From the NCBI GenBank assembly GCA_964636545.1, contig CAZWSR010000011.1, forward strand, positions 1 to 24,273: a stretch of 24,273 nt of DNA, written 5' to 3'. The stretch is from Candidatus Undinarchaeota archaeon (GTDB lineage: Archaea > Undinarchaeota > Undinarchaeia > Undinarchaeales > UBA543). The position numbers were made by a program, and so were the translations under genes. The notes below the pieces were generated by a model, which did no database searches, was not told where the DNA came from, and saw nothing but the letters and a program-made list of their open reading frames with translations. This document shows positions 1 to 23,072 of the stretch, piece by piece; within the stretch, counting starts at the first letter, position 1, and each line of letters starts with the position of its first letter.

Positions 1-579
1 TGGATTGGTTTCATATTCTGCATGATTGCTGCAGTGATGTTTGCTTTTGGAGATTACAAGTGGCTTGTTATTGGCGCTTTAGTTCTTGAACTTGGAAATA
101 TTTTTGACATGGTTGATGGAGATCTTGCAAGAGCAAAAAACATGCTTTCAAAGTATGGCCACCTTTTAGACAGTACACTTGATGCGGTTTTTGACTTTGT
201 AATAATAATTGCATTAACGTATTCGGTCTGGAGAGTTAGACCAGAATTGCATGTTTGGGTAATTGGAATGTTCAGTATGTATTTCCTAGCAGAATTCTTT
301 GTAATGTCCCGTTTCTTCATACTCCCATATGACTTGCCGCATGGTGAATTCAAAAAATCATTTGGAAAACTTGGAAAAAGCAAAATTTACAATCTTTTGT
401 TTTACGCAAGACAGCATCATATGAATCTGATAGCAGTATTCGCAATACTAAACCAGTTTTACATTCTACTTTGGTGCTGGGCAATTATTGGAAACATCTA
501 CTGGATTACTTATACAATCTGGCAGCACAAAGCAATGATAAAGGCCTTTAAAAAACATGAGAAAGAAAAAGAAAAATGA
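1..579 (+). CDS. CDP-alcohol phosphatidyltransferase family membrane protein (probably 5'-truncated)
   Basis: DMVDGDLARAKNMLSKYGHLLDSTLD matches the D-x2-DG-x2-AR-x8-G-x3-D-x3-D signature. The protein has several hydrophobic segments. The frame is open from base 1 (WIGFIFC), so the true start is probably upstream of the window. Confidence 0.85.
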   Translation, partial: WIGFIFCMIAAVMFAFGDYKWLVIGALVLELGNIFDMVDGDLARAKNMLSKYGHLLDSTLDAVFDFVIIIALTYSVWRVRPELHVWVIGMFSMYFLAEFFVMSRFFILPYDLPHGEFKKSFGKLGKSKIYNLLFYARQHHMNLIAVFAILNQFYILLWCWAIIGNIYWITYTIWQHKAMIKAFKKHEKEKEK

Positions 580-2462
580 CTACCAAAAAGACTGCCTTAA
601 TCCTTGATTCGCAGAAAATGGTGTTTTCACACCCACTTAGAAAAGTCTATGATTTTGTGAAAGATATTGAACAGTCAGCAAAGTTCAAACGAATTCCTTC
701 TAAAATAAAATCCTTGAAAAAAAAGTACAACAACCTTATTCCTTTAGCACTTGATTATAAAACAAGCCAAGAACTAGAAAAAAGTGGTATAGAACATAAG
801 TGTCATTCAGAGGTTACTGAACAATTTTTAGAATTTAATTCATGGAACCACACCTACAAATTCATGAAGAGAATGGATCCTGTAATAAAACAAATAGATC
901 CTAGTATGGTCCATCGTGGACAGCTCTTGTGGGATTTGAATCAGGCAGAAATTTGGCGGTTCTATGCTGTTCCAATTATAAAAACAATTGAAGAGGCATA
1001 TAAAATTCTTGATGAAGGTAGATACGAGAGAGTGATTATTTTTGACAACACAAGTTCATACCAAAAAGCATTTGCACTTGTAGCTGAGCAATTGAATATT
1101 GAAGTTGTTGACAAAACCCGAGTTTACAAAAAAGCAAAGACAGGAACGGAAATACGTGCAATAAAGCTTCTTGCTGAAAAAAGCGCAAGAGCACTTCTGA
1201 AAACACTTGGAAAAAAGAACAAAGAGAAAATTGAAAAGAAAAAAGACAAGAAAATTTTAGTGTTTTATGATCATTGTGAAACAGATAAAGTAACTTCTTG
1301 GGGAAAATTCCTTCCAGACACTTATGAAAAGAGTTGTGTTGGGTTAGATTCGGAAAAAGAAGTTAAAAAAGAGTTTCAAGAAGCTGGTTTTGAATATGAA
1401 CGCTTGTATAATTATGCAAGTGAACCAATTTTGAAAGAACTAAAAACAGTCAAAAAACAACTTGGAGCCGTGTTCAAAACACTTGAAAAAAATAAAGTAT
1501 TCCAGCACGGATTCGCTTACAGGAATGTTCCAATGTGGCCAGTTACCAAAAAATTATTTGCATTTCTATTTTATGAACGGTTTTTGGAAACGGCAACGAG
1601 AATAGAATTATTCAACAGGATGTTGGATGTTGAAAAACCAGACATGGTTATTTGTGTTGATGATTGGAGTAGATACCCATTCACACTCTTGTCAATAACA
1701 AAACAAAGAGGAATAAAATCAGCAGTTGTTAGATATGGAATGCTTGACCTGCGGCCAGAGGGTGTGCCAATGAATGGAGACAAAATAATGGTTTATGGGG
1801 AAACTGGAAAAACTGCTCTTTTGAATAGTGGAGTTAGTGCTGACAAAATTGAAGTTACAGGACAGCCAGAAGGTAAAGAAGAAAATAGAGTACTTGAAAC
1901 TGACAAAGCACTTGCAATACTTGGACTTGATAAAAGCAAGCCAATAATCGCTTTTGGCGGAACTTGTATGCCAGAGAGTGCAACTTACCACCCATATGAT
2001 ATTTTTTACAATACAATAAAGAAAAATTACCAGAACGCACAGGTTGTTTCAAAAATGCACCCATCTGAAAATCCCACATTACAACAGGTACTAGTGAAAA
2101 AGCACGGACTGAATAACATAATTCTCACAAAAAAATATCTTTTTGAACTTCTCACTGCATCATCAGTTCTGGTAACACCTGGATCAACTGTTGCAAATGA
2201 AGCAATTGCATACGGAACTCCAGTGATTTACATAAATACACTAAATGCACCAGAAGAAATCCTTCTCAAGAAAAACCCAGGAATTGTCGAGGTTGTTTAT
2301 GATGAAAAACAGCTAGAAAGTGCACTTAAGCGTATTCTGGAGAAAAATAGGAGAACTGAAATAAAGAATATGAGTAATGAGATTTCAAAAAGCTCAATTC
2401 TTCAGAAAGGTGCTGTTGCAGGAAAAGCTGTAGTAAGTGTTCTAAAAACCATGATTGACTAA
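576..2462 (+). CDS. Surface-carbohydrate biosynthesis protein with a GT-B-like C-terminus (NeuC/TagF/KpsS-like); candidate nonulosonate transferase
   Basis: 628 aa. The C-terminal half has PDMVICVDD, IMVYGE, IEVTGQP, KMHPSE and STVANEAIAYGTPVI motifs typical of GT-B capsule/teichoic-acid proteins. ATGA overlap with the upstream gene. Confidence 0.55.
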   Translation: MTTKKTALILDSQKMVFSHPLRKVYDFVKDIEQSAKFKRIPSKIKSLKKKYNNLIPLALDYKTSQELEKSGIEHKCHSEVTEQFLEFNSWNHTYKFMKRMDPVIKQIDPSMVHRGQLLWDLNQAEIWRFYAVPIIKTIEEAYKILDEGRYERVIIFDNTSSYQKAFALVAEQLNIEVVDKTRVYKKAKTGTEIRAIKLLAEKSARALLKTLGKKNKEKIEKKKDKKILVFYDHCETDKVTSWGKFLPDTYEKSCVGLDSEKEVKKEFQEAGFEYERLYNYASEPILKELKTVKKQLGAVFKTLEKNKVFQHGFAYRNVPMWPVTKKLFAFLFYERFLETATRIELFNRMLDVEKPDMVICVDDWSRYPFTLLSITKQRGIKSAVVRYGMLDLRPEGVPMNGDKIMVYGETGKTALLNSGVSADKIEVTGQPEGKEENRVLETDKALAILGLDKSKPIIAFGGTCMPESATYHPYDIFYNTIKKNYQNAQVVSKMHPSENPTLQQVLVKKHGLNNIILTKKYLFELLTASSVLVTPGSTVANEAIAYGTPVIYINTLNAPEEILLKKNPGIVEVVYDEKQLESALKRILEKNRRTEIKNMSNEISKSSILQKGAVAGKAVVSVLKTMID

Positions 2463-2509: not shown

Positions 2510-3655
2510 ATGAAATACTGTAAAAACTGCGTAATGCCAGACACAAGACCAAATCAGGTTTTTGATGACGAAAGAGTCTGCGACGCATGTAGATCCCATG
2601 AACAAAAAATACTGCATGTTGACTGGGATACTAGAAAAAAAGAATTTGACGAACTTATTGAAAAATATAGATCAAAAGACGGGAGCAATTATGACTGTAT
2701 TGTACCTGTGAGCGGAGGAAAAGATAGCACATACCAAGCTTGGTTTATGAAGGAAGTTTACGGATTGAAGGTATTGTGTGTTTCATTTGAACCAACACTT
2801 CCAACAGAAATTGGGAAACAAAATTTAAAGAATTTACAAGATATGGGAATTGACCTTATTCATTTTAGAAAAGATCCAGAAACATACAGAAAACTTGAAC
2901 TTAAAGCATTGAAAATGGTCGGGGACAATGATTGGCCAAATCATGTTGGAATATTCACGGTTCCAGTTCGTGTTGCAGTAAATTATAAAATCCCATTAAT
3001 TGTTTGGGGAGAAAACCCAGAAGAAGAATATGGTGGACCAGCTGCAGAAAAGGCAATGAAAACAAAAGGAAGACGAAGGCTGGAAGAATTTGAGATGCTT
3101 GGATTACGGGTTCATGATATGGTTGGAGATGGAATAAAACTGCAGGACCTTTTACCATATATTTATCCTTCTGATGAAGAAATTAAAGAAGCTGGTGTAA
3201 TTGGAACTTATCTTGGTTATTACTTTAAATGGGATGTTCCAAAGCAAATTAAAATTGTTGAAGAAAAATGTAATTGGAAACCAAAACCAGGTGAGCCAAT
3301 GGAAGGAACATTCACTAATTATGAAGATATTGATTGTGACGGAATGGTTGTTCACGAATATTTGAAATATGTAAAATATGGATTTGGTCGAGGAACTGAC
3401 CATGCATGTAATAAAATCAGAGAAGGTTTAATGTCAAGAGAAGAAGCAGTTGGACTTGTTAACAAGCATGATGGAAAATTCCCAAAAAATGCAATGAAAC
3501 GACTTTTACCTTATCTTGGAATAACAAAAGAAGAATTCTTTAAAATTGTCAAACCATTTACAAATAAAGAGATTTTTGAAAGAGATGAAACTGGAGAATT
3601 CAAGAGAGACGAAGATGATAATCTAATTAAAAAAGAGGATTGTATTCTAAAATAA
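2510..3655 (+). CDS. wbuX: N-acetyl sugar amidotransferase (WbuX/PseA family), copy 1
   Basis: N-terminal CKNC...PDTRP...CDAC, PP-loop SGGKDS, WGE and LKYVKYGFGRGTD motifs. Adjacent to HisH- and HisF-like genes. Confidence 0.9.
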   Translation: MKYCKNCVMPDTRPNQVFDDERVCDACRSHEQKILHVDWDTRKKEFDELIEKYRSKDGSNYDCIVPVSGGKDSTYQAWFMKEVYGLKVLCVSFEPTLPTEIGKQNLKNLQDMGIDLIHFRKDPETYRKLELKALKMVGDNDWPNHVGIFTVPVRVAVNYKIPLIVWGENPEEEYGGPAAEKAMKTKGRRRLEEFEMLGLRVHDMVGDGIKLQDLLPYIYPSDEEIKEAGVIGTYLGYYFKWDVPKQIKIVEEKCNWKPKPGEPMEGTFTNYEDIDCDGMVVHEYLKYVKYGFGRGTDHACNKIREGLMSREEAVGLVNKHDGKFPKNAMKRLLPYLGITKEEFFKIVKPFTNKEIFERDETGEFKRDEDDNLIKKEDCILK

Positions 3656-3657
3656 AA

Positions 3658-4287
3658 ATGATTGTAATAATTGACAACAACATGGGAAATGTTCGTTCTG
3701 TACAAAAAGCATTTCAGAGATTGGGTCAAAAAGATGTTATTATTTCTAAAAAACCAGAAGATTTAGAAAAAGCAGATCGAATAATTCTTCCAGGTGTTGG
3801 TTCATTCAATGACGCAATGACAAATTTAAAGAAAAACGGATTTATTGAACCACTAAATAAACAAGTTATAGATAATAAAAAACCGTTTCTTGCTATTTGT
3901 TTAGGGATACAATTACTTGCAGAAAAAGGGTATGAAGGAGGAGAACAAGAAGGTCTTGGCTGGATATCTGGTGAAGTGAAGAAATTTGAACTTCCAAGAG
4001 ACTTTAGAATACCACATATGGGTTGGAATAGCATAATTCCAAAAAAAGACAATATACTATTTCAAGGAATTGGAGATGATGCTGCATTTTATTTTGTGCA
4101 TAGCTATCATTTAGATTGTCATGATAAATCAATAATAACTTCAGAATGTGATTATGGAAAGAAATTTGTGGCAAGTGTGAGAAAGGATAATATATTCGGC
4201 ACGCAGTTCCATCCAGAAAAAAGTCAAGTAAAAGGATTTCAGATTCTTGAAAATTTCTTAAAATATGAGGAGGAAACAAAGAAATGA
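3658..4287 (+). CDS. hisH: HisH-like class I glutamine amidotransferase (glycan amidation-associated), copy 1
   Basis: MIVIIDNNMGN, LPGVG, ICLG (catalytic Cys), PHMGWN, YFVHSY and QFHPEKS motifs. ATG 3658 is preferred over TTG 3640 because it gives the canonical HisH N-terminus. Confidence 0.9.
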   Translation: MIVIIDNNMGNVRSVQKAFQRLGQKDVIISKKPEDLEKADRIILPGVGSFNDAMTNLKKNGFIEPLNKQVIDNKKPFLAICLGIQLLAEKGYEGGEQEGLGWISGEVKKFELPRDFRIPHMGWNSIIPKKDNILFQGIGDDAAFYFVHSYHLDCHDKSIITSECDYGKKFVASVRKDNIFGTQFHPEKSQVKGFQILENFLKYEEETKK

Positions 4288-5093
4288 CTTTGAAAAAAAG
4301 AATTATCCCTTGTCTTCTTCTGAATAAGTGGCTTCTTGCTAAAACTATAAAATTTGGAGAAATAAGAAACTTAGGAAATGCAGCTCAGGCAGCTAAAGTT
4401 TACAATATGAGAAATGTAGATGAGCTTATGTTTTTGGATATTCAGGCGTGTAGAGAAAATAAAGAGCATAATTTAGAACTTGTAAAAGAACTTGCAGATG
4501 AGTGCTTCATGCCGCTTACACTTGGTGGTGGAGTGAAAAGCGTTGAGGATATGAATAAACTTTTGCAAGCAGGAGCTGATAAAATTGCAATAAACACAGC
4601 AGCTGTTGAAACACCAGAATTAATTACAAATGGAGCTCAAAAATTTGGTTCACAATGCATTGTTGTTTCAATTGACGCTAAAAAAACAGAAAAAGGATAT
4701 GAAGTTTTCATACAATCAGGTAAAAAAGCAACGGGATTAGATCCAGTTGAATGGGCTAAAAAAGTAGAAGACCTTGGTGCTGGTGAAATTCTAATAACTT
4801 CAATTGATAAAGATGGAACTTTTGAAGGGTTTGATCAAGAATTAACAAAAAATGTTTCAGAAGCTGTAAAAATCCCAGTTATTGCAAATGGTGGAGCTGG
4901 AAAACCAAAAGATTTCGTAGATGCAGTCAAAATTGGTGGAGCATCTGCTGTTGCAGCAGCTAGTATATTCCAATACACTCAATATTCCCCAGTAGCTGTG
5001 CGAGAACATATGGCAGAAGCAGGAATTGATGTACGAACAAATGTGTATGCAGAACATTTAACTGGCTCAGACTTGAAATTTAGTATAACATAA
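4284..5093 (+). CDS. hisF: HisF-like TIM-barrel subunit (WbuZ-type), copy 1
   Basis: [38 protein letters not shown] and PVIANGG motifs. GAGGAGG RBS upstream. Lacks the first catalytic Asp of true HisF. Confidence 0.9.
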
Positions 5094-5111
5094 TGAGTGA
5101 GAATTGACATA

Positions 5112-5128
5112 CATAAACGATTTATAAC
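5112..5128 (+). promoter_or_regulatory. Putative archaeal BRE/TATA box for the neuB-1 operon
   Basis: CATAAACGATTTATAAC. The TTTATAA core is at 5121-5127, 34-40 nt before ATG 5161. Confidence 0.55.
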
Positions 5129-5160
5129 GGATTTTTACCTCTTTTATTAGAGAGATAAGA

Positions 5161-6180
5161 ATGAAAATCACAATTAATGGAAAAGAATACAGCAAGAGGA
5201 ATGTGCTAGTAGTTGCTGAAATGGCTAATTCGCATGATGGAGACATGGAAACAGCCAGAAACATAATAAAAAGCTCAGCAGAAGCTGGAGCTGATGCAAT
5301 AAAAATACAGAGAATAATTGCTGATGAGATTTCAATACCTGAATATTCCTATTATGAAATTCTGAAAAACTGTGAAATGCCAATAGAATCTTGGGAAGAA
5401 CTTGTAAATTATGCAAAGGAGCTTGGAATAATGGTTTTTGCAGATGTTTTTGGAGAAACCAGCTTAGCTGATATGGAACGACTGAACCTAGATGGTTATG
5501 AAATTCATTCTTCAGATATTACAAACCCTTTCCTAATCAAAAAAGTTGCTGAAACAGGAAAACCATTGTTCTTGTATGTTGGTGGAGCAACACTTGAAGA
5601 AGCTGAATATTCTGTGAACAAGGCAAAAGAGTATGGTGCAAAGGAAATTATTATCATGCACGGATTCCAAGCATTCCCAACAAAAATGCAGGACAGTAAT
5701 CTTGAAAGAATTAAAATGCTTCAGGAAAAGTTTGGATTGCCTGTTGGATATGCCGGACACCTTGACGGTGATGATGAAATGACTAATTTCTTCCCACTGG
5801 TTGCAATGGGAATGGATGCAATTATAATTGAAAAACATGTTGGTTGGGACAGAAGCAAAAAGGGAACAGACCATCATTCTGCACTAAATCCAGATGAGTT
5901 CAAGAAACATGTTGAATTTGTAAGAAGAGCTCAAGATAGTTACGGAAATACTGAATTTAAGCTCAATCCAGCTGAAATTGAATACAAAAAACTAGTGAAG
6001 AAGCACATTCTTGTAGGTGCTGACATAAAACAAGGTGAAGAAATCACAAATGAAAAAATCCATCTAAAGCGTGTTGAAAGTGATTTACCATTTATATTTG
6101 TTGAAGATGTTGTTGGAAAAACAGCTGCTCAAGATATTAAGAAAAATGAAATAATGACAAAAGAGATGGTGGTACAATGA
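5161..6180 (+). CDS. neuB: NeuB/SpsE-family nonulosonate synthase homologue, divergent copy, with C-terminal SAF/AFP-like domain
   Basis: AEMANSHDGD, ADAIKIQ, IIEKH and DHHSAL motifs plus a C-terminal GKTAAQDI SAF-like domain. Several active-site motifs are non-canonical. Confidence 0.85.
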   Translation: MKITINGKEYSKRNVLVVAEMANSHDGDMETARNIIKSSAEAGADAIKIQRIIADEISIPEYSYYEILKNCEMPIESWEELVNYAKELGIMVFADVFGETSLADMERLNLDGYEIHSSDITNPFLIKKVAETGKPLFLYVGGATLEEAEYSVNKAKEYGAKEIIIMHGFQAFPTKMQDSNLERIKMLQEKFGLPVGYAGHLDGDDEMTNFFPLVAMGMDAIIIEKHVGWDRSKKGTDHHSALNPDEFKKHVEFVRRAQDSYGNTEFKLNPAEIEYKKLVKKHILVGADIKQGEEITNEKIHLKRVESDLPFIFVEDVVGKTAAQDIKKNEIMTKEMVVQ

Positions 6181-6917
6181 CCAAATTCGTTGCTGTTCTA
6201 GCTTGCAGAGTTCAGTCAGAACGATTATATGCAAAACCGCTACAGCTTGTTGGTGGAAAACCAATTCTTCAGCACGTAATAGATAGAATCAAAGAACAAT
6301 GCAAAAGTATTGATGAGGTTATTCTTGCAATTAGCGAGAATCCAGAAAATATTCCATTTGAAACTTATGCAAAAGAGCACAATATCAAATATGTTTATGG
6401 TGATGAAAATGATGTTCTTGGTAGATTGATTAAAGCAGGGCACGCAGCTGAAGCAGATGTTATTTTGAGAAGCACAACTGAGAATCCATTTATTTATGTT
6501 AAAACAATTGATGAAATGTATAAAAAGCATGTGGAAGAAAAGGCAGATATTTCAGTTTGTGAAGAAGTTCCAGTTGGCGCTTATGTTGAAATTATAACTT
6601 TGAAAGCTCTTGAACAATCGCATGCAGATGGAGAAGATAAACATAGAAGTGAATTGTGCACACTTTACATTAAAGAAAATCCAGACAAATTCAAAAAACT
6701 TTCTTACAAAGTTGATGAAGAAATTCGTAGACCAGAAATTCGCCTGACTGTTGATAATCCAGAGGATTTGATTGTTGTTAGGAAAATCTGGGACGCAATT
6801 GGAACACAAGAAGGAGTTATTCCTCTTGCAGATATTATCAAATTCCTTGATGAAAATCCAGAGATTAAAGCAATTAATTCTGGAATACTTGCAGGTACAG
6901 CAAAAACATGGAAATAG
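6177..6917 (+). CDS. spsF: SpsF/NeuA/KdsB-family cytidylyltransferase (CMP-ulosonate synthetase)
   Basis: ACRVQSERLYAKPL, GDENDVLGR and RLTVDNPED motifs. Coupled to neuB-1 by an ATGA overlap. Confidence 0.8.
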   Translation: MTKFVAVLACRVQSERLYAKPLQLVGGKPILQHVIDRIKEQCKSIDEVILAISENPENIPFETYAKEHNIKYVYGDENDVLGRLIKAGHAAEADVILRSTTENPFIYVKTIDEMYKKHVEEKADISVCEEVPVGAYVEIITLKALEQSHADGEDKHRSELCTLYIKENPDKFKKLSYKVDEEIRRPEIRLTVDNPEDLIVVRKIWDAIGTQEGVIPLADIIKFLDENPEIKAINSGILAGTAKTWK

Positions 6918-7600
6918 AAACAACAAAGATTAGTGTCATCCTAAGAACTTACAATAGTGCAGAATTTGTGCAAAAAGCACTTGGAAGTATTGCAGTTCAG
7001 ACCTTGCCCGTTAGCGAGTTTGAACTTGTTTGTGTTGATGATGGTTCAACAGACAATACAATTGAAATTCTTGAAACTTTTGCAAGTGAGCACCAAGACA
7101 TTAATTTAAAGATTGTAAAAAGTGAGCATGGTGGAGCAATTCGTGCAATCAATACTGGAATAAATAATTCAACTGGACAATACATTGTTCTACTTGACTC
7201 TGATGATAATTTTGAGCCACTTATTCTTGAAAACCTGTCTTCAGTTCTTGATACAAAACCTGAAATTAGTTTTGTTTATTGTGATTATTATGAAAAAACA
7301 GGAGAGAAGAAGAAAATAGTTGCTGTTTCAGACCTTATGAAGACACTTGCAATAGGTGTGATGTTCAGAAAAGATGTTTTGGATGCAGTTGGACCTTATG
7401 ATGAGTCGCTGATTCTTCCAGAATATGATATTATTTTGAAAGCAAACAAAACTTACACTAGCGAGCACATTGCTGAGCCACTTTTCACTTACAATAGACG
7501 CGATGGAAGCATAACAGCAGATCCAGCAAGAGTTGAGCTAGCTGAAAAACAATTACGAGAACGTCATGGTGAAATAATTGACAAGATGAGGTCGTACTAA
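6908..7600 (+). CDS. Glycosyltransferase family 2
   Basis: ISVILRTYN, VDDGSTD, AINTG and the DxD motif LDSDD. Confidence 0.9.
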   Translation: MEIETTKISVILRTYNSAEFVQKALGSIAVQTLPVSEFELVCVDDGSTDNTIEILETFASEHQDINLKIVKSEHGGAIRAINTGINNSTGQYIVLLDSDDNFEPLILENLSSVLDTKPEISFVYCDYYEKTGEKKKIVAVSDLMKTLAIGVMFRKDVLDAVGPYDESLILPEYDIILKANKTYTSEHIAEPLFTYNRRDGSITADPARVELAEKQLRERHGEIIDKMRSY

Positions 7601-8529
7601 TGATGAGAGTAGTTTATATTGGATGCAAAGAAATTGGAAAAACAGTACTAGATGCATTAATGGAGTTTTACACAGAGGGAATTGTTGGAGTTTACACTTA
7701 TGCTGATGAAATGAGCAACAAATACACAAGAAACTCCTCATTCGATAGTGTAATGGCAAAATATCCAGATACTCTTTACAGAAAAATTGAAGATATTAAT
7801 AATCCAGATGTGTTGGATGAGATCCGAAGTTTGAAACCAGACGTAATTATACAATTTGGCTGGTCTCATTTAATAAAAAAAGATTTGATAAATATTCCAC
7901 CAAAAGGATGTGTTGGATTCCACTCTTCACTTCTTCCAAAATACAGAGGCGGGTCTCCACTGAATTGGGGAATCATAAATGGAGAAACAGAATGGGGAAT
8001 GACTTGCTTCTATTTGACTCCTGGACTTGATGATGGCGATATTATTGCTCAAGAAAAGTTTCCAATAGAAGAATATGATACTTGCAAAACACTTTATGAC
8101 AAGGCAGTAGAGTCCTCAATTAAGATGCTGAAAGAGAATTTGCCAAAAATAGCAAATGGAACAGCTGAAAGAATTCCTCAAAATTCAGCAGAAGTGACAC
8201 TAGTTAAGAGGCGGAAACCAGAAGATGGGAAAATTGACTGGGATATGCCTGTAAAAAAGATTTATGATTTGATTAGAGGAACTACAAGACCGTTCCCAGG
8301 TGCTTTCACATTCCTAGGAGATGAAAAAATAATTGTTTGGGCTAGTAGGAAAACTGGAAAGGACTCTTCAGGTAGTGCTTCAGGAAAGATTTTGGAAATA
8401 ACTGACAAAGGAGTTGTTGTTTCAACTGGGAATGAATCGCTTTTACTAACAGATATTGAATATGAAAAAGCGCATGACACTAAGATTGACAAACAATATA
8501 TAGGCAAAAAATTGGGTGAAATAGTATGA
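7600..8529 (+). CDS. Fmt-like N10-formyl-THF-dependent (sugar) formyltransferase
   Basis: GFHSSLLPKYRGGSPLNW, LDDGDII, DGKIDW and PFPGAFT motifs, in a glycan-locus context. Confidence 0.85.
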   Translation: MMRVVYIGCKEIGKTVLDALMEFYTEGIVGVYTYADEMSNKYTRNSSFDSVMAKYPDTLYRKIEDINNPDVLDEIRSLKPDVIIQFGWSHLIKKDLINIPPKGCVGFHSSLLPKYRGGSPLNWGIINGETEWGMTCFYLTPGLDDGDIIAQEKFPIEEYDTCKTLYDKAVESSIKMLKENLPKIANGTAERIPQNSAEVTLVKRRKPEDGKIDWDMPVKKIYDLIRGTTRPFPGAFTFLGDEKIIVWASRKTGKDSSGSASGKILEITDKGVVVSTGNESLLLTDIEYEKAHDTKIDKQYIGKKLGEIV

Positions 8530-9176
8530 ATGTATTGATAGTTGCTGCACATGCAGATGATGAAACACTTGGTTGTGGAGGTGCAATTGCAAAGCACACT
8601 CAAGCAGGCGATAAGGTAACTTTGTTGATATTAGGAAAAAGTGGAACTTCACGAGAAGGAGAAGACACTTCAAATGAACTTAGAGAATGTGCAAAAAAAG
8701 CAGCTGAGATTCTTGGAATAAATGATATTATTTTCACAGACCTTCCTGACCAGAAATTTGATACAATCCCACTTGTTGATATTATAAAACCAGTATCAGA
8801 CGCAATAGAAAAATCCGGAGCAGAAATTGTTTACACTCATTATGAAAATGACTTGAACCGCGATCACAAGCTTGCTTTTGAAGCTACTATGATTGCAGCA
8901 AGACCACAAAGTAATGTGAAAAAGATACTCTCATATGAAGTTCCAAGCTCAACAGAATGGGTTTCTTCAGAGAATGTGTTCAAACCGAACCACTTTGTTG
9001 ACATTACAGCCAACTTAGACAAGAAACTGAGTGCAATGGAACAGTATAGTGGAGAATTGCGCGAATTCCCAAATCCACGAAGTTTGGAATATTTGAAGAT
9101 ATTGGCTGGTTATCACGGAGCAACAGTTAACGTTAAAGCTGCTGAAGCATTTATTCTTATACGAGGAATTAAATGA
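8526..9176 (+). CDS. PIG-L/LmbE-family de-N-acetylase
   Basis: AHADDETLGCGG metal-binding motif, THYENDLNRDH, YEVPSSTEW and AEAF. GGTGA RBS upstream. Confidence 0.9.
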   Translation: MNVLIVAAHADDETLGCGGAIAKHTQAGDKVTLLILGKSGTSREGEDTSNELRECAKKAAEILGINDIIFTDLPDQKFDTIPLVDIIKPVSDAIEKSGAEIVYTHYENDLNRDHKLAFEATMIAARPQSNVKKILSYEVPSSTEWVSSENVFKPNHFVDITANLDKKLSAMEQYSGELREFPNPRSLEYLKILAGYHGATVNVKAAEAFILIRGIK

Positions 9177-10267: not shown

Positions 10268-11491
10268 TTAGAAATAATATCTTTTCTCGTCTTTTTCTCT
10301 TGGAGAATCAGTTAATGAATAATTGTGATCTCCAACAATTGGCAATCGGGCTTCTTCAACTCCAGGATCATTAGCATGGTCCCAAACATTATCTGGCATT
10401 TCCCACGCACCTTGTTCATTTTTCTTCCAAGCAATTGGACTTCGCATAGTGTCAACACAAGCTACAAATTCTTCTTCAGTCATGTCAACGAATTTTAAGA
10501 ACATATCAAGATCATCTGGACGAAGAGCATCATATTTCCGAACCATTTCAATACCTTCCTCGCGAGTCATTCGACCAAACCGAATGTCCTTATTAGCGTG
10601 GTCAGTAGCACGACCGTAACCAAATTTCAAGTATTTTAGCCAGTCATGCAAACCATTATCATGCCAGCATTCAACATCCCATTGAGTATTGTAGGTTCTC
10701 TGGAACTCTGCTGTTTCAAAACCATAATCCTTTATCATTTTATCAGTTTGTGGCTTTGAATCCCATTTAATGTAATTCCCCATGAAAACACCCCTGACCC
10801 CAACACTTTCAAGTTCTGCATCAGATGGATATTTTGCCCACCGAAGATCATCAGCAGTTATTCCTTCTTCTTCATCAACAAGGTCTTCTGCATCATAACC
10901 ACGCAATTCCTGCTCTTTTCTGACTTTTCGTGTCATTTCAACCTTATCTTCAAGTGAAAACATGCCACCAAGGTCAAGGAAGCCCTGCTCACCCCAAATA
11001 AGCAAAGGAATCTTGTATTTGACAGCAATTTGAACAGGAAAAGTTGTAAGTCCGGCGTGGCAGTGCCAGCAAGGATCGCCCATTGTTTTTAGTGATTTTC
11101 TAGCAAGGCGAGGTATTAATTTTGGATCAGGAGAGAACCTAATATGGTCGCATCCGAATTTTTGAACCATATTCTCCAAATTTCTTATTCCAGCAGCAGT
11201 GTTCCACTGATGGTTAAATGTTACAAGAAGAGGATTCATTTTGAAAACTTCTTTGATAAGATAAGTTTGATAGTGACTGTCCTTGCCTCCGCTAACAGGT
11301 ATGATACAATCGTAATTTCCATCTTTAGAACGGTACTGTTCTAGAATTTTTCCAAGCTCTTTGAACCGAACATCCCAATCAATTTTCTTTTTTTCCTCTT
11401 CTACGCGGCATGCACTACATATCCCCCGATCATCGAACGTGAGTGGTACAGCTGAAGATTCCGGTAACAAGCATCGTGTACAATACTTCAT
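10268..11491 (-). CDS. wbuX: N-acetyl sugar amidotransferase (WbuX/PseA family), copy 2
   Basis: MKYCTRC...CSAC, SGGKDS, CWHCH, WGE and LKYLKFGYGRATD motifs. ATG 11491 is preferred because it matches the copy 1 N-terminus MKYC. Confidence 0.9.
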   Translation of the reverse strand: MKYCTRCLLPESSAVPLTFDDRGICSACRVEEEKKKIDWDVRFKELGKILEQYRSKDGNYDCIIPVSGGKDSHYQTYLIKEVFKMNPLLVTFNHQWNTAAGIRNLENMVQKFGCDHIRFSPDPKLIPRLARKSLKTMGDPCWHCHAGLTTFPVQIAVKYKIPLLIWGEQGFLDLGGMFSLEDKVEMTRKVRKEQELRGYDAEDLVDEEEGITADDLRWAKYPSDAELESVGVRGVFMGNYIKWDSKPQTDKMIKDYGFETAEFQRTYNTQWDVECWHDNGLHDWLKYLKFGYGRATDHANKDIRFGRMTREEGIEMVRKYDALRPDDLDMFLKFVDMTEEEFVACVDTMRSPIAWKKNEQGAWEMPDNVWDHANDPGVEEARLPIVGDHNYSLTDSPREKDEKRYYF

Positions 11492-11512
11492 GTTTAACAA
11501 CAAAACGCTTGG

Positions 11513-11535
11513 ATTTATAGTTTATATATTTTGTT
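11513..11535 (-). promoter_or_regulatory. Putative TATA box for wbuX-2
   Basis: The minus strand reads ACAAAATATATAAACTATAAAT, ending about 22 nt upstream of ATG 11491. A T6 tract (11554-11559) follows the hisF-2 stop. Confidence 0.5.
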
Positions 11536-11569
11536 TAAAAAGAATCTTTCAATAAAAAAGAGTGGAAAC

Positions 11570-12379
11570 TTAGTTAATTTCAAGCTTTTTCAAATGGCCA
11601 CGTTCAAGATAAGTAGCTTCCGTGCTGATACGAACGTCAATTCCAGCATTTCTCATAGTTGCTTTTGCCTTGATTGTGCTGTGTTCAGTATAATGGAAAA
11701 TATTTGAAGCTGAGACTGCTGAGGCGTGTCCGTCTTTGATTCCCTTTACAAAATCTTCCATACAACCAACCCCACCGCAGGCGATTACTGGGATTGAAAC
11801 AGCATCAGAAACATTTCTGATAAGTTCAATGTCATAGCCCTGTTTTGAACCGTCCATATCAATTGAGGTTAAGAAAATTTCGCCAGCACCTAGTTCTTCA
11901 GCTTTTTTTGCCCATTCAACCGGATCCATGCCTGTTGCTTCCTTTCCGCAGGCAGTTATTACTTCATATCCCTTCTCTGTTCTTTTCACATCAATTGAAA
12001 CAACAATGCACTGGACACCAAACATTTCAGATGCCTTTGTAATAAATTCTGGATTGTGAACTGCAGAAGTATTTATGCAAACTTTGTCAGCACCTGCACG
12101 GAGAACTTCTTTGATATCTTTGGTTGTCTTAATTCCACCACCAATTGTAAGTGGAATAAAACATTTTCGTGAGAAAGCAGAAATTACATCAAGCATTGCT
12201 ATTCGTTCTTCAGGAGTTGCACTCATGTCAAGAAAAACAATTTCATCAACATCCCAATCAATAAAACGCTCAAGCGTAAATCTAGGTCGACCCTGGATTT
12301 TGTAATCATGAAATCCCATACTCTGGACAAGGTAGCCCTGTCGAAGAACCATACACGGAATTAAACGAGTTTTAAGCAT
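11570..12379 (-). CDS. hisF: HisF-like TIM-barrel subunit (WbuZ-type), copy 2
   Basis: TRLIPCM, DEIVFLD, GGGI, GADKV, VVSID, GAGEIF and PVIACGG motifs. Confidence 0.9.
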   Translation of the reverse strand: MLKTRLIPCMVLRQGYLVQSMGFHDYKIQGRPRFTLERFIDWDVDEIVFLDMSATPEERIAMLDVISAFSRKCFIPLTIGGGIKTTKDIKEVLRAGADKVCINTSAVHNPEFITKASEMFGVQCIVVSIDVKRTEKGYEVITACGKEATGMDPVEWAKKAEELGAGEIFLTSIDMDGSKQGYDIELIRNVSDAVSIPVIACGGVGCMEDFVKGIKDGHASAVSASNIFHYTEHSTIKAKATMRNAGIDVRISTEATYLERGHLKKLEIN

Positions 12380-13001
12380 TTTGTTCCTCCACTTTTTCGT
12401 AATTCAAGAAATTTTTAAGAACTTGAAGACCAACTTTGTGGCTTTTTTCAGGATGAAACTGAGTTGCGAATATGTTTCCTTTTTGAACTGCAGCAACTAA
12501 GTCAGAACCGTAATTGCAAGTTGCAGCAATATCCTTTTTATCATTACAGAAAAGTGCATAACTATGTACAAAATAAAAGTTTTTGTCAAATTCAACTTCA
12601 TTGAAATAATCTTTTTTCAGTATTTTAATATCATTCCAACCCATGTGTGGAAGTTTGAGACCATTGGAAACTTCAATTTTCTTTACAACACCATCAATCC
12701 AGCCTAATCCATCAATTTGTTTTCCTTCGAACCCCTCTTTTGCAAGAAGTTGGAGCCCAAGACAGATTCCAAGAAATGGCTTCTTTTTATCAATTACTTC
12801 CTCATTAAGAACATCAATAAGCCCTGCTGCTTTCAGGTTTTTCATTCCATCAGGGAAAGCACCAACTCCAGGAAGAATTATTTTATCTGCTTTTCGAATC
12901 TCCTCGGGTTTGTTAGTTATGCAAAACTCCTGCCCAAGCTCCTCAAGAGCATTTGAGATTGACAGTAAGTTCCCTAATCCATAATCAATAACAGCAATCA
13001 T
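12372..13001 (-). CDS. hisH: HisH-like class I glutamine amidotransferase, copy 2
   Basis: MIAVIDYGLGN, LPGVG, GICLG, PHMGWN, YFVHSY and QFHPEKS motifs. Confidence 0.9.
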   Translation of the reverse strand: MIAVIDYGLGNLLSISNALEELGQEFCITNKPEEIRKADKIILPGVGAFPDGMKNLKAAGLIDVLNEEVIDKKKPFLGICLGLQLLAKEGFEGKQIDGLGWIDGVVKKIEVSNGLKLPHMGWNDIKILKKDYFNEVEFDKNFYFVHSYALFCNDKKDIAATCNYGSDLVAAVQKGNIFATQFHPEKSHKVGLQVLKNFLNYEKVEEQNA

Positions 13002-13099: not shown

Positions 13100-14059
13100 A
13101 TGAAAGTACTTGTAACCGGTGGCGTCGGATTAATTGGTCAAGAAGCAGTTAGACAGCTTCTGGAAAAAGGCCATGAAGTAAATGTCCTTGATGTTTGGGA
13201 CCCTAGGAATGAGAATACAACCCATTTCAAAGGCTCTGTTCTAAAAAAAGAGGATATTCTAAAAGCAATGGAAGGATGCGATTATGTCATGCACCTTGCT
13301 GCAGTTATGGGAGTTGCAAATACCACAAAAAAGCCACTAGAATGCCTGGATGTCAACATACTTGGAACACGAACTGTACTTGAATGTTGTGTTGAGAAGA
13401 ACATCAAAAAAATAGTTTTCTCGTCTTCTTCTGAAGTTTATGGAGAACCAAAAACAGTCCCAGTTCTAGAATCAAATACACTAAGGCCAAAATCAGAATA
13501 TGGAATAAGTAAAGTTGTTGGAGAAGAATATGTAAAAGCATTTAGTATCGGTCATGGTCTTGATTACTCAATTGTCAGATTTTTCAATGTTTATGGACCA
13601 ATGCAGACAGACAAATTCGTTATTCCAATGATGATGAGAAATACATTTTTTGGGAAGCCAATACAGATTTACGGTGACGGAAGCCAAGTACGGGCCTTCT
13701 GCTATGTTAAAGATGCTGTAAACGGAATGATAACTGCATTATTTGATGAGCGTGCAAATAATAAGATAATGAATATTGGAAATCCAGAAGGAAAAACCAG
13801 CATCAAAGAACTTGCTGAGAAAATTGTTGAAATCACAGGAAATGAAACACAGATTGAGTATGTAGCATTTGGTGATTCAGATAGAAGTGAAAAGAGAGAG
13901 ATATTCAACAGAATTCCAGATATTAGCAAGGCAAAAGATACAATTGAGTATGAACCAAAATACTCACTTGATGATGGTTTGAAAGAGATTTACAATTATT
14001 ACAAAGCAAATCCAGATTGGGTTAAAGCAGATCCAGATTGGGATGATAAAATAGAATAA
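13100..14059 (+). CDS. NAD-dependent nucleotide-sugar epimerase/dehydratase (extended SDR)
   Basis: TGGVGLIG, HLAA, SSSEVYG, YGISK (YxxxK), RFFNVYGP and GDGSQVR motifs. Confidence 0.9.
   Translation: MKVLVTGGVGLIGQEAVRQLLEKGHEVNVLDVWDPRNENTTHFKGSVLKKEDILKAMEGCDYVMHLAAVMGVANTTKKPLECLDVNILGTRTVLECCVEKNIKKIVFSSSSEVYGEPKTVPVLESNTLRPKSEYGISKVVGEEYVKAFSIGHGLDYSIVRFFNVYGPMQTDKFVIPMMMRNTFFGKPIQIYGDGSQVRAFCYVKDAVNGMITALFDERANNKIMNIGNPEGKTSIKELAEKIVEITGNETQIEYVAFGDSDRSEKREIFNRIPDISKAKDTIEYEPKYSLDDGLKEIYNYYKANPDWVKADPDWDDKIE
14003..14042 (+). repeat. 21-bp-period tandem duplication at the 3' end of the epimerase gene
   Basis: AAAGCAAATCCAGATTGGG-TT-AAAGCAGATCCAGATTGGG (18/19 identical), encoding KANPDWV-KADPDWD. 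Confidence 0.8.
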
Positions 14060-14067
14060 GTTGAGCT

Positions 14068-14087
14068 AAAAAAGAATTATTTTTTTT
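14068..14087. terminator. Putative bidirectional oligo-T terminator
   Basis: A6 (14068-14073) and T8 (14080-14087) at the junction of convergent genes give a U-tract after each stop, with no GC hairpin. Confidence 0.4.
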
Positions 14088-15081
14088 CGTAGACATAACT
14101 ATCAAGAGATGGACAGTTTTTGCAAACAGGAATTTCATTTAGTTTGCCTGCAAGATGCATCCTCCTTATATTACTTAGTTTTTCTCCATGCCAGATACTG
14201 TGAATGGATTGGTGGGTGACATCACCAAGAATACAGCCCATGTTCCAGTCATCACAGCACATCATTACTTTTCCGTCATAAGAAATAATGAGGCGTTGCC
14301 AGATTTGGTTGCAAGGTTTTCTTTCTTGTAATTTCAAATTTCCAGAAGAACGATCTACTTCATTTGCATTTGGATCAAGATAAGACATATCAAGGAATGG
14401 ATTAACAATAACTTCATCAATTTTTCCTTCCCAGGTTTTCTTGAATAATTCTGACTCGTGCATATTTTCCTTCATTTCAACAAATTGAATTCTTGTAAGT
14501 GGGAGTTTCTTTTTCATTTCTTTTTTCAAACGAAGAAGTGTTTCAATGTTGTTTACAAGACGCTCATAAATGCCTCCGCGCCTTATTTTCTCATAAGTTT
14601 CCTTAGTTGCGCCATCAACAGAGAAAATTATTCTGTCAAGACCCGCTTCAATTAATCCCCTGGCCTTTTCTTCAGTAAGAAGTTGACCATTAGTATTAAA
14701 CTGAACCTCAACAATTCCTTTTTCTTTAGCATATCGAACCATATCAACAACACGAGGATGTAAAAGCGGTTCGCCACGCCAGTTTAATTTAATTGAACAA
14801 AGCCCGTGTTGAACCCCTTCATCAATAATTTTTTGAAAAAGCTCCCAGGTAATAGATCCAAATGTTTCTTTTGCGAAATTAATTCCACACATTACGCACC
14901 GAAGATTGCAGTTGTTTGTAGTTTCAATATCAATGTGAATAGGAAAATCATACACTTTGTGTTTTTTTGAAGCTAGAAGCCACTTGAGCCGGTATTTTCT
15001 GTATTTGAGATCCAAGCCACGCTCCCAATAACCAAATAATGGCTTAAGTGAAACTCCAATTTCAAAGGAAGATTTAGACAT
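14077..15081 (-). CDS. Radical SAM protein with SPASM/Twitch domain
   Basis: CNLRCVMC (CX3CX2C), GEPLLH, NTNG and FSVDG motifs. The C-terminus has CNQIW...CCDDW...CKNC. Confidence 0.9.
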   Translation of the reverse strand: MSKSSFEIGVSLKPLFGYWERGLDLKYRKYRLKWLLASKKHKVYDFPIHIDIETTNNCNLRCVMCGINFAKETFGSITWELFQKIIDEGVQHGLCSIKLNWRGEPLLHPRVVDMVRYAKEKGIVEVQFNTNGQLLTEEKARGLIEAGLDRIIFSVDGATKETYEKIRRGGIYERLVNNIETLLRLKKEMKKKLPLTRIQFVEMKENMHESELFKKTWEGKIDEVIVNPFLDMSYLDPNANEVDRSSGNLKLQERKPCNQIWQRLIISYDGKVMMCCDDWNMGCILGDVTHQSIHSIWHGEKLSNIRRMHLAGKLNEIPVCKNCPSLDSYVYEKK

Positions 15082-15171: not shown

Positions 15172-15684
15172 ATGACAGAAGAAACCGTATTTTCAGTTCA
15201 GGAAAAGGCACTTACTGTAAGTTATGCTGATGAAAATGACAGAGAACTGCTCTGGGAGTGGAGAAATGATCCAGAAACGCGACGTACTGCTTTTGAAACA
15301 GGTGAAATCCATTTTGAACAACATTGTGAGTGGTTTAATTCTAAAATTAATTCAGAAACTACAAAGATTTTCATTATAAAAGATTCAAAACAAACACCAG
15401 TTGGACAGATTCGTTTTGATATTGATGAAAATAAGAATACTGAAATTGATGTTTTTATTGCAAAAAGCGAACGTGGAAAAGGGTATGCTACAGCTAGTTT
15501 GAAAAGCGCATGTGTTTATGGTTTTACAACTCTTGGGATTGAAAAATTCACAGCACACATAAAAACTGAAAATGCTGCTTCAATTGCTCTTTTTACAAAA
15601 GCTGGTTTTACAAACAATGGCGAATTAACATTCAAAAACACTCCAGCAATTAAATTTGTTTTAGAGAAGACGATCAACGAATGA
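15172..15684 (+). CDS. GNAT N-acetyltransferase, PseH-like
   Basis: LLWEWRNDPETR, HCEWF, VGQIRFD, RGKGYA (AcCoA motif A) and NAASIALFTKAGF. Confidence 0.8.
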   Translation: MTEETVFSVQEKALTVSYADENDRELLWEWRNDPETRRTAFETGEIHFEQHCEWFNSKINSETTKIFIIKDSKQTPVGQIRFDIDENKNTEIDVFIAKSERGKGYATASLKSACVYGFTTLGIEKFTAHIKTENAASIALFTKAGFTNNGELTFKNTPAIKFVLEKTINE

Positions 15685-21180: not shown

Positions 21181-21834
21181 TTATTTGTGGTTTTTCTTGT
21201 AGTCAGCCCAAAAGTCAAGGAATTCTTGAATTGTCTCCTGTGTGCGAGGATGAACATACATTTTGTTCAAGATTTTTGGAGGGATTGTTAAAATATCCGC
21301 TCCTGCACGCATTGCAGACATAACATCATAAACAGAGCGTATGCTTCCGATTATGAGTTTTGCATCAAGATCACAGTCATCAAATAACTCAGCGCATTCT
21401 TTTGTAACATCAAATGCATTGTAACCCATGTCTCCAACTCTTCCAAAGAACAGTGAAACATAAGTTGCACCAGCTTTTGCAGCTAGAACACATTGACTTG
21501 AACTCATACAGCAAGTAACATTTGTTTTAATTCCTTTTTCTTTTAGAATTTTAGTTGCGCAAAGACCGTTTGCATCCATAGGGATTTTAACAACAACATT
21601 GTCACCCCATTTGGAGTAAGTAACAGCTTCCTCGACCATTTGTTTGGTGTCAGTTGTAGTTACTTCAATGCTCACAGGACCGTTTACTAGTTTGAGAATC
21701 TCTTTCATCCTAGTTTCAAAGTCACAGCCCTCTTTTGAGACAATTGCCGGGTTTGTGGTGCATCCATCTACAATGCCCATGTCAAGACCCTTTTGTATTT
21801 CTTCTAAATTTGCAGTATCTATGTATATATCCAT
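21181..21834 (-). CDS. tal: Transaldolase (TalC/MipB type)
   Basis: IDTAN, TTNP, SIEV, VVKIP (Schiff-base Lys), NVT, SLFFGR and GSIR motifs. GAGGAGG RBS upstream. Confidence 0.9.
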   Translation of the reverse strand: MDIYIDTANLEEIQKGLDMGIVDGCTTNPAIVSKEGCDFETRMKEILKLVNGPVSIEVTTTDTKQMVEEAVTYSKWGDNVVVKIPMDANGLCATKILKEKGIKTNVTCCMSSSQCVLAAKAGATYVSLFFGRVGDMGYNAFDVTKECAELFDDCDLDAKLIIGSIRSVYDVMSAMRAGADILTIPPKILNKMYVHPRTQETIQEFLDFWADYKKNHK

Positions 21835-21835
21835 T

Positions 21836-23040: not shown

Positions 23041-23072
23041 TATTATCACAAAAATGGTCGGGATAAGGGGTT

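Follow-up and report, generated by a model that had tools for sequence, protein, structure and literature searches.

We found that P0001, one of two NeuB homologues encoded in a 24,273-nucleotide stretch of Candidatus Undinarchaeota DNA (the window; contig CAZWSR010000011.1 of assembly GCA_964636545.1, here C11), belongs to a branch of the NeuB family in which the phosphoenolpyruvate (PEP) side of the active site has been remodelled and the metal and sugar ligands have been kept. The source genome comprises 840 kb in 39 contigs and is 83% complete. The other homologue, NeuB-2, is a canonical nonulosonic-acid synthase, and the gene that follows P0001 encodes a cytidylyltransferase to which the whole branch is closely linked. 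We propose, tentatively and with slightly less than even confidence, that P0001 is a companion of this cytidylyltransferase in a non-canonical role alongside NeuB-2, the protein itself probably having a function other than the textbook synthase reaction.

The open reading frame (ORF) of P0001 is intact, with its frame open, and that of NeuB-2 was likewise translated; the two products share 27% identity (BLASTP, E 2e-42). P0001 matches the Pfam profiles NeuB (PF03102, 168.9 bits, cut-off 22.1) and SAF (PF08666, 36.9 bits, cut-off 21), and its structure model, with a predicted local distance difference test (pLDDT) score of 96.6, has template-modelling (TM) scores of 0.85 to Neisseria meningitidis NeuB (NmeNeuB; 2wqp) and 0.87 to Campylobacter jejuni PseI (8h2c). 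Both the profiles and the TIM barrel/SAF fold therefore place it in the NeuB family. It falls, however, under the NCBIfam equivalog cut-offs for NeuB (TIGR03569, 208.3 vs 399.65 bits) and PseI (TIGR03586, 210.9 vs 340.25 bits). Matches in the ESM Atlas carried generic names only, and a phage collection gave two weak unannotated matches.

An initial annotation, made from the letters of the window alone, had pointed to five motifs in which P0001 departs from NeuB-2, and all five pairs are present and aligned (NeuB-2/P0001: MSSVF/FADVF, YKIAS/YEIHS, IMSIG/FLYVG, QCVAQYP/HGFQAFP and GFSDH/GYAGH). The NmeNeuB numbering that it had given also proved right: in a HMMER alignment to 2wqp, the PEP-side residues T110, K129, S154 and S213 of a canonical synthase (T or S at 110) correspond to D95, E114, Y139 and A198 of P0001. 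Further changes are G131 to H116, E134 to D119, C182 to G168, N184 to Q170, Y186 to F172 and D214 to G199. The T110/K129/S154 stretch is free of gaps in this alignment, as is the S213 region in the alignment to PseI 8h2c. By contrast with the PEP side, the metal and acid residues expected of a canonical synthase are present in P0001 (H215=H200, H236=H226, E25=E20, E234=E224 and D247=D237), together with K53=K48, Q55=Q50, S132=S117 and the SAF-domain Arg (R314=R304). In canonical synthases this Arg extends into the active site of the other subunit of a domain-swapped dimer. NeuB-2 has all PEP, metal and sugar ligands and its own SAF domain, and its best solved relative is Bacillus subtilis SpsE (1vli, 298 bits).

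The role of S154 in PEP binding by NmeNeuB is one that we presume. The annotation had assigned PEP binding to all four altered positions, and three of them, T110, K129 and S213, are indeed among the contacts of a bound intermediate analogue listed in an NmeNeuB inhibitor study (Thr110, Lys129, Asn184, Tyr186, Ser213, His215, Glu234 and Arg314 among others; PMC6795526), but Ser154 is absent from that list. In the structure model, D95, E114 and Y139 stand at the ends of three neighbouring strands (91-96, 112-115 and 136-139), and from the geometry of a TIM barrel we would expect them to lie together as a continuous acidic and aromatic surface at the site that accommodates PEP in NeuB.

We refer to the branch containing P0001 as the GQ clade, an operational name taken from the Gly and Gln that never vary at 182 and 184 in the NmeNeuB numbering (motif HGFQxxPT); its defining features are G182 and Q184, an acidic residue at 110 and a residue other than Ser at 213. 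P0001 has these features (HGFQAFPT, D95, A198) and lies inside the GQ group on the tree. Used alone as the query, P0001 returned no close relative in public genome contigs; with a narrower alignment (A2) as the query, 80 public GQ loci were retrieved from archaea and bacteria, and residues were counted in these and in the 59 canonical NeuB-type sequences that the loci also provided. In the canonical set, K129 and T/S110 were each found in 58/59 sequences, C182 and S213 each in 57/59, S154 in 56/59 and Q184 in 0/59, whereas the GQ set had G182 and Q184 in 80/80, D/E110 in 65/80, S154 in 32/80, S213 in 7/80 and T/S110 in 0/80. With canonical conservation as strong as this, chance is a very poor explanation of the changes in P0001. 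E25, Q55, H215, E234, H236, D247 and R314 are kept in both types: among GQ sequences E25, H215, H236 and D247 are each present in 80/80, Q55 in 79/80, and E234 and R314 each in 78/80, and R314 is also found in 54/59 canonical sequences. The metal and N-acyl-sugar residues are constrained to the same degree as in genuine synthases, and the PEP-side Ser/Thr cradle is gone clade-wide. The invariance of the acid/base and metal residues argues against a plain dead subunit at the level of the clade.

On the tree, 57 of the 59 canonical rows fell in one set behind a branch with a support of 100 in the Shimodaira-Hasegawa-like approximate likelihood-ratio test (SH-aLRT), with two changes per label. 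Remodelling of the PEP-side pocket with retention of the metal and sugar ligands, which the annotation had read from a single gene, is thus borne out both by the 2wqp alignment and by the comparison of the two sequence sets. That the remodelling is special to P0001 is true of K129E, S154Y and D214G, which are lineage-specific, but not of T110D, G131H, E134D, C182G, N184Q and the loss of S213, which occur throughout the clade.

Judged by its sequences, the GQ clade is a large, deep, old, widespread and unstudied branch of the NeuB family in archaea and bacteria, represented in small-genome archaea as well as in Bacillus, Paenibacillus, Nitrospira and anammox bacteria; database entries usually call its members 'N-acetylneuraminate synthase family protein' or legionaminate synthase. 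The best 120 database matches to P0001 were 35-69% identical to it and shared a common signature (AEMANSHEG, KFQ, FVDVFG, YKIHSxD, MHGFQxYPT, GxMDH, EKH, DYYSAL, FKR), and an exhaustive search yielded 884 representatives at E <= 1e-30. Among 121 sequences (P0001-P0121), G168 occurred in 119, Q170 in 120, D95 in 87, H116 in 97 and D119 in 108, and H200, H226 and D237 were present in 121/121. A wider set of 270 domains contained several sub-branches that also have no K129 and differ at other pocket residues, including one with M, V, C and R at 110, 129, 134 and 154. That sub-branch (P0097, P0102, P0103, P0106, P0111, P0113, P0114, P0116, P0117, P0119 and P0121) has S or N at K53, M or Q at T110, V at K129, C at E134 and R at S154, and it retains the metal His, D247 and the SAF Arg, another independently remodelled pocket.

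The annotation had cast NeuB-2 as a possible partner of P0001. The tightest partner turned out instead to be the cytidylyltransferase encoded by the next gene, a KdsB/SpsF-like protein of the CTP_transf_3 family (we take SpsF to be a cytidine monophosphate (CMP)-sugar synthetase) whose closest solved chain is 6oew, 'Cytidylyltransferase'. In the 80 loci, a CTP_transf_3 domain was fused to the GQ domain in 37, encoded by an adjacent gene on the same strand (<=150 bp, either side) in 31, found within 3 kb in 6 and absent from 6, the contig ending at the GQ gene in three of the latter. Fusion or adjacency thus accounts for 68/80 loci, and P0001 shares this arrangement, its stop codon being overlapped by 4 bp by the start of the next gene. 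The same domain is carried by 74 of 119 closest database matches. A prediction of the complex of P0001 with the adjacent cytidylyltransferase, made with an alignment for each protein, returned a score of 0.00 and gave no answer, speaking neither for nor against binding.

The genome of the window and G001, a genome of the same genus, each contain one PF02348 (CTP_transf_3) gene, which lies beside the GQ gene; the NeuB-2 product would therefore be activated only by the gene coupled to P0001, unless another lies in the unassembled 17% of the genome. Among the 61 loci with both NeuB types, 29 have a single cytidylyltransferase-like domain. In the pseudaminic-acid loci L093 (Paenibacillus) and L096 (Clostridiaceae), which encode PseC and PseI above cut-off, a PseB-like protein below it, PseH and, in L093, PseG, the GQ fusion is the only cytidylyltransferase among the ORFs scanned, so that in some systems it must be the GQ-linked cytidylyltransferase that activates what the canonical synthase makes. 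Replacement of PseG by the GQ domain was considered and rejected, L093 having both.

In G005 and G011, genomes of relatives from the same taxonomic order, the module consists of a 630-aa (amino acid) protein, a radical SAM/SPASM protein, the GQ protein, the cytidylyltransferase and a fusion of a GT2 glycosyltransferase with a PseF-like domain, with a canonical NeuB nearby. The GT2 homologues in the same-order loci L016 and L017 (459 and 463 aa) match both glycosyltransferase models and PseF (TIGR03584). The GT2 plus PseF-like fusion follows the GQ-cytidylyltransferase pair at L016:5936-7315 and L017:8342-9733, and ORFs of 455-468 aa with the same fusion were seen in L026, L029-L031, L034, L038, L041, L044, L048, L059, L067, L070 and L079.

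In 61/80 loci the GQ gene has a canonical NeuB-type ORF no more than 8 kb away; in the other 19 genomes, a second high-scoring NeuB was located elsewhere in 14, matches were split in 2, and none was found in 3. The check proposed in the annotation thus came out in its favour: proteins with these substitutions form a clade, and a canonical NeuB accompanies its members in nearly all cases. In some proteins the parts are joined. The ORF L056:5610-9746 encodes 1378 aa comprising a DegT aminotransferase, a canonical NeuB of full length, SAF Arg included, a GQ domain, a SAF domain and a CTP_transf_3 domain, and P0122 combines NeuB, GQ and CTP_transf_3 in one chain. P0002 and P0001 are 45% and 36% identical to their respective parts of L056. 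From these fusions it follows that NeuB-2, P0001 and the cytidylyltransferase correspond to the split form of one known polypeptide.

Other fusions built from the same parts were GQ + CTP_transf_3 + GT2, CTP_transf_3 + GQ + CTP_transf_3, PseB-like + CTP_transf_3 and GNAT + GQ, the multi-domain fusions being found among L056, P0122, L032:7998-11135, L046:7275-9806, L061, L063:8987-10759, L075:3018-4784 and P0245. Fusions of CTP_transf_3 with GFO/IDH/MocA stand beside the GQ genes in L063 and L075. In Bacillus spizizenii, the GQ-cytidylyltransferase fusion (L068:7917-9764 and L073:7965-9764) is located between spoIIQ with a GNAT gene and a cardiolipin synthase gene; it stands alone in one strain, and after it in another comes a complete pseudaminic-acid operon that includes a separate cytidylyltransferase.

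The near-universal co-occurrence, the tandem fusions of a canonical NeuB and a GQ domain in one chain, the retention of R314 in 78/80 GQ sequences and the loss of K129, S154 and D214 in the P0001 lineage would all suit the model put forward in the annotation, a non-catalytic paralogue that tunes NeuB-2 in a domain-swapped heterodimer, for example by lending its SAF-domain Arg. We consider this explanation improbable. Canonical partners, including NeuB-2 and the canonical parts of the fusions, have a SAF domain and Arg themselves (54/59); metal and acid/base residues that a mere scaffold would not need are kept in close to 80/80 GQ sequences; linkage is much tighter to the cytidylyltransferase than to NeuB; and the orthologue cluster in G001 has no adjacent canonical NeuB. 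The narrower idea that the canonical partner borrows the SAF domain of the GQ protein was rejected: in both L056 and P0122 the canonical part spans the whole of P0002 together with the SAF Arg.

Within the clade, E114 and Y139 occur together only in P0001, P0003 and P0004, which we call the E-lineage. P0003 is the same-genus orthologue and is 99.7% identical to the G001 gene; the two residues are identical in all three members, whose overall identity is 59-69%. Compared with 162 main-clade sequences at positions conserved in at least 80% of them, the E-lineage differs mainly by K114E, S139Y, D199G (2/3), L229W/F and at G219, and otherwise matches the main-clade consensus. Between P0001 and its G001 orthologue, the nonsynonymous and synonymous rates were dN 0.208 and dS 1.449, a ratio of 0.14 in which dS is near saturation; similar ratios were obtained for the neighbouring cytidylyltransferase (0.18) and GT2 (0.19) genes. 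P0001 is under purifying selection, and the claim that the gene is intact and constrained is upheld. A decaying, functionless duplicate, which the loss of three otherwise highly conserved residues might suggest, is accordingly very improbable: the frame is open, dN/dS is as low as in the neighbours, E114 and Y139 have stayed identical at 59-69% identity, translation is coupled to the next gene through the 4-bp overlap, and the fold is predicted with very high confidence.

The GT2 proteins of the window (230 aa) and of G001 (226 aa) have no C-terminal PseF-like cytidylyltransferase domain, and loss of this domain appears to go together with K129E, in a comparison of two genomes with two. In the third genome of the genus (G002, ~81% complete), a cytidylyltransferase-NeuB pair of the classical kind, its pocket canonical (CTTGYPS, GQSDH), was seen on contig C10 at 21357-22809; no GQ gene was found there with a P0001-type query, in a genome of that completeness.

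Our preferred explanation is that the GQ clade would act in nonulosonic-acid pathways as a unit with the KdsB/SpsF-like cytidylyltransferase, beside a canonical synthase. NeuB-2 would condense PEP with the amino sugar, and the product of the gene after P0001, the only enzyme detected that could make the CMP-sugar, would activate the result. P0001, with metal and N-acyl-sugar sites kept and the cradle for the PEP phosphate and carboxylate apparently rebuilt, would work with the cytidylyltransferase in binding or processing either the amino sugar or the completed nonulosonate. Given the rebuilt cradle and the lineage loss of K129, S154 and D214, P0001 most likely performs no canonical PEP condensation, and we infer that it has lost PEP use, acts on a nonulosonate and forms a physical complex. 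In the E-lineage, the system may have shrunk to a single synthase (NeuB-2) and a single activator, P0001 remaining as the partner of the latter.

Several observations weigh against this explanation. The lysines that we expect to hold PEP are mostly retained in the GQ clade (K53 in 66/80, K129 in 75/80), as are the three presumed catalytic Glu/Asp residues, so that the main clade could still consist of PEP-dependent synthases; the phosphate site could in that case have been rebuilt, with H116 and Q170 replacing the serines. At least two cytidylyltransferase-like domains are present in 32/61 loci, and G005 and G011 have three PF02348 genes each; a second cytidylyltransferase in about half of the loci is what one would expect of two synthases working in parallel, each with its own activator, and not of an accessory protein. 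The other NeuB gene of B. spizizenii TU-B-10 (L068) is 130 kb away from the fusion gene, which stands alone. The E-lineage comprises three sequences only, and a second cytidylyltransferase could lie in the unassembled part of the source genome.

These points lead to the alternative that P0001 is a working synthase for a second ulosonic acid, whose formation could, for example, involve a different aldose or the opposite facial selectivity, the adjacent cytidylyltransferase activating it and PEP or a related 2-oxo-acid being bound differently. The order of synthase and cytidylyltransferase mirrors that of NeuB/NeuA pairs; the metal ligands, E25, E234, D247, Q55 and R314 are all kept; the second cytidylyltransferase-like domain, often GT2 + PseF-like, stands next to the canonical NeuB; and two divergent amidotransferase sets are present in the window, one beside each NeuB homologue. 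A preprint (bioRxiv 10.64898/2026.04.20.719630) reports organisms that have more than one CMP-ulosonic acid, among them a compound with a longer chain. On the other hand, the E-lineage has Glu in place of a Lys kept in 58/59 canonical and 75/80 GQ sequences, and Glu at K129, Asp at T110 and Tyr at S154 make the PEP side of P0001 strongly acidic, which counts against a second synthase. Moreover, the Pse-type loci L093 and L096 show no separate precursor pathway, and only one cytidylyltransferase was found in the source genome and in G001. P0001 may be an ordinary variant synthase, although we regard a second synthase as rather unlikely.

Somewhat less likely still, GQ proteins would be metal-dependent, PEP-independent enzymes that edit nonulosonic acids or hand them to the fused cytidylyltransferase, and not synthases; one example of such editing is a retro-aldol/aldol C4 epimerase or another reaction at C3-C4. 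Viewed as a pseudo-enzyme, P0001 has lost K129, S154 and D214, and it keeps the metal ligands and E25/D134/E234 at a dN/dS of 0.14. If GQ proteins were editing enzymes, the K129E/S154Y lineage would be a further specialised or binding-only form.

Many microbes have their surface glycans, flagella and S-layers capped by nonulosonic acids such as sialic, pseudaminic and legionaminic acid, and the gene clusters for these sugars are currently read with three enzyme labels, NeuB, PseI and LegI. P0001 points to a fourth, deep branch of the family with a systematically different donor-side pocket, welded to an activating enzyme. If the branch does have another job, many predicted 'two-synthase' clusters have been misread, and a missing step toward unusual CMP-sugars could be found; if that job is editing, a large hidden layer of sialic-acid-like sugar diversity would derive from a NeuB fold turned to new chemistry. 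Should GQ proteins be merely variant synthases, the finding would be ordinary. Culturable carriers exist in Paenibacillus and B. spizizenii.

The features of the window are listed in the table. Its left half is a single co-directional array of mostly overlapping ORFs in which P0001 is the sixth of eleven, and the suggestion that its gene is promoter-proximal was not confirmed. The 67-bp gap upstream of P0001 contains TTTATAA; a scan for bacterial-type promoters gave 7 sites vs 5.4 expected and is uninformative for an archaeon.

Table. Features annotated in the window (coordinates in nucleotides of the window).
Feature	Coordinates	Strand	Evidence or remarks
CDP-alcohol phosphatidyltransferase fragment	within 22-2462		Start of the array; overlaps the 628-aa GT-B-like gene
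628-aa protein, GT-B-like C-terminal region	576..2462	+	TIGR04396 37 bits and NF046086 31 bits, both below cut-off
WbuX/HisH/WbuZ(HisF)-type N-acetyl sugar amidotransferase set 1	2510..5093	+	TIGR03573 400, TIGR01855 252, TIGR03572 303.6 bits
P0001, NeuB-family TIM barrel + SAF, GQ clade, 339 aa	5161..6180	+	Pfam NeuB 168.9, SAF 36.9 bits
CTP_transf_3 cytidylyltransferase, KdsB/SpsF-like	6177..6917	+	PF02348 66.6 bits
GT2 glycosyltransferase, 230 aa	6908..7600	+	PF00535
Formyltransferase, Fmt/ArnA N-terminal type	7600..8529	+	Profile matches
PIG-L family N-deacetylase	8526..9176	+	Profile matches
NeuB-2, canonical nonulosonic-acid synthase, SpsE-like, 364 aa	9173..10267	+	Pfam NeuB 250.5 bits
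WbuX/WbuZ/HisH amidotransferase set 2	10268..13001	-	Convergent on NeuB-2
NAD-dependent sugar dehydratase/epimerase, LegB- or RmlB-like	13100..14059	+	Profile matches
Radical SAM/SPASM enzyme	14077..15081	-	Profile matches
GNAT acetyltransferase, PseH-like	15172..15684	+	TIGR03585 60.5 bits, below cut-off 93.1

The 628-aa protein is a candidate transferase at most, its profile matches being weak; homologues were found in L015, L016 and L017 and in 17/80 loci overall, and the gene is conserved beside the module in relatives. Amidotransferase set 1 sits directly upstream of P0001. Sets 1 and 2 are both complete and share only 39-50% identity, which suggests two separate amidine-forming steps or two substrates. 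The radical SAM/SPASM gene is present in 23/80 loci and lies directly upstream of the GQ gene in the same-order relatives L016 and L017. The profile 'spiro-SPASM protein' (TIGR04321) is matched in its N-terminal half (12-225) by the cytidylyltransferase and in its C-terminal half (216-502) by the radical SAM/SPASM protein; the window therefore holds a split form of the spiro-SPASM fusion.

On the reverse strand at 21181-24059, consecutive genes encode a transaldolase/FSA, a HAD phosphatase, a SIS-domain isomerase and a GFO/IDH/MocA oxidoreductase; they resemble a portion of a heptose-phosphate route, for which no kinase or nucleotidyltransferase was found within the window. No aminotransferase is encoded in the window itself. 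At a contig end, the last 4 kb of C10 of the same genome (L105) encode a UDP-GlcNAc 3-dehydrogenase-like protein (3778-4734), a NeuD/PglB-type acetyltransferase (4715-5347) and the only strong DegT-type aminotransferase of the genome (5430-6530). In the same-genus locus L015 (11390-15595), genes for a sugar-phosphate nucleotidyltransferase-like protein and an iron-type alcohol dehydrogenase precede that for the CDP-alcohol phosphatidyltransferase; together with the first genes of the window (22-2462), this hints that a CDP-alcohol head-group step is tied to the glycan cluster.

In full-text literature searches, neither the GQ clade nor a fusion of NeuB with CTP_transf_3 nor a pseudo-enzyme of the NeuB family was found described; the supplementary sequence logos of PMC8208679 might show the clade. 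That study, a large phylogeny, reports E134D in 29.2% of environmental NeuB sequences and does not separate a GQ-like group, and PMC12531865 contains none of the residue names searched for. A legionaminic-acid cluster with a deacetylase and a formyltransferase like those of the window is reported in the preprint cited above (10.64898/2026.04.20.719630).

Among characterized enzymes, N. meningitidis NeuB (2wqp, 1xuu/1xuz) shares with P0001 the TIM barrel, the SAF (antifreeze-protein (AFP)-like) domain and the nine retained residues given above, but differs from it at ten pocket positions (T110D, K129E, G131H, E134D, S154Y, C182G, N184Q, Y186F, S213A and D214G). C. jejuni PseI (8h2c) is the best sequence match of P0001 among solved structures (120.9 bits), and relatives of P0001 occur inside complete Pse-type clusters; those clusters, however, also hold a true PseI that scores 472-482 bits, above the cut-off that P0001 does not reach. 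The sps genes of B. subtilis, reported in PMC7439481 to encode a legionaminic-acid pathway, likewise place a NeuB-family gene beside a CTP_transf_3 gene. SpsE is the closest relative of NeuB-2, whereas P0001 belongs to the other clade, the pocket of SpsE being canonical (MHCVAKYPA, GFSDH).

A catalytically dead paralogue that activates its active partner, the concept behind the model of the annotation, is exemplified by the trypanosomatid S-adenosylmethionine decarboxylase (AdoMetDC) prozyme (PMC5201418). There too a paralogue with altered active-site residues is kept beside an active enzyme, but the GQ clade retains its metal and acid/base residues, and heterodimer formation or activation is only hypothetical for it. 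EpaA of Acinetobacter baumannii prophages consists of a CTP_transf_3 domain and an aldo-keto reductase and, according to PMC12053666, makes 8-epi-pseudaminic acid with EpaB. Its partner domain is an aldo-keto reductase and not a NeuB-like barrel, and the 8-epimerisation is that of EpaAB, the GQ proteins being known from sequence. The EpaA/EpaB system nevertheless resembles the GQ fusions in joining CTP_transf_3 to a second enzyme domain, which in EpaA edits a nonulosonate, and so offers a precedent for our preferred explanation. The CTP_transf_3 and GFO/IDH/MocA fusions beside the GQ genes in L063 and L075 are similar to EpaA, and in L093 the GQ fusion is itself followed by genes for an aldo-keto reductase and a short-chain dehydrogenase/reductase.

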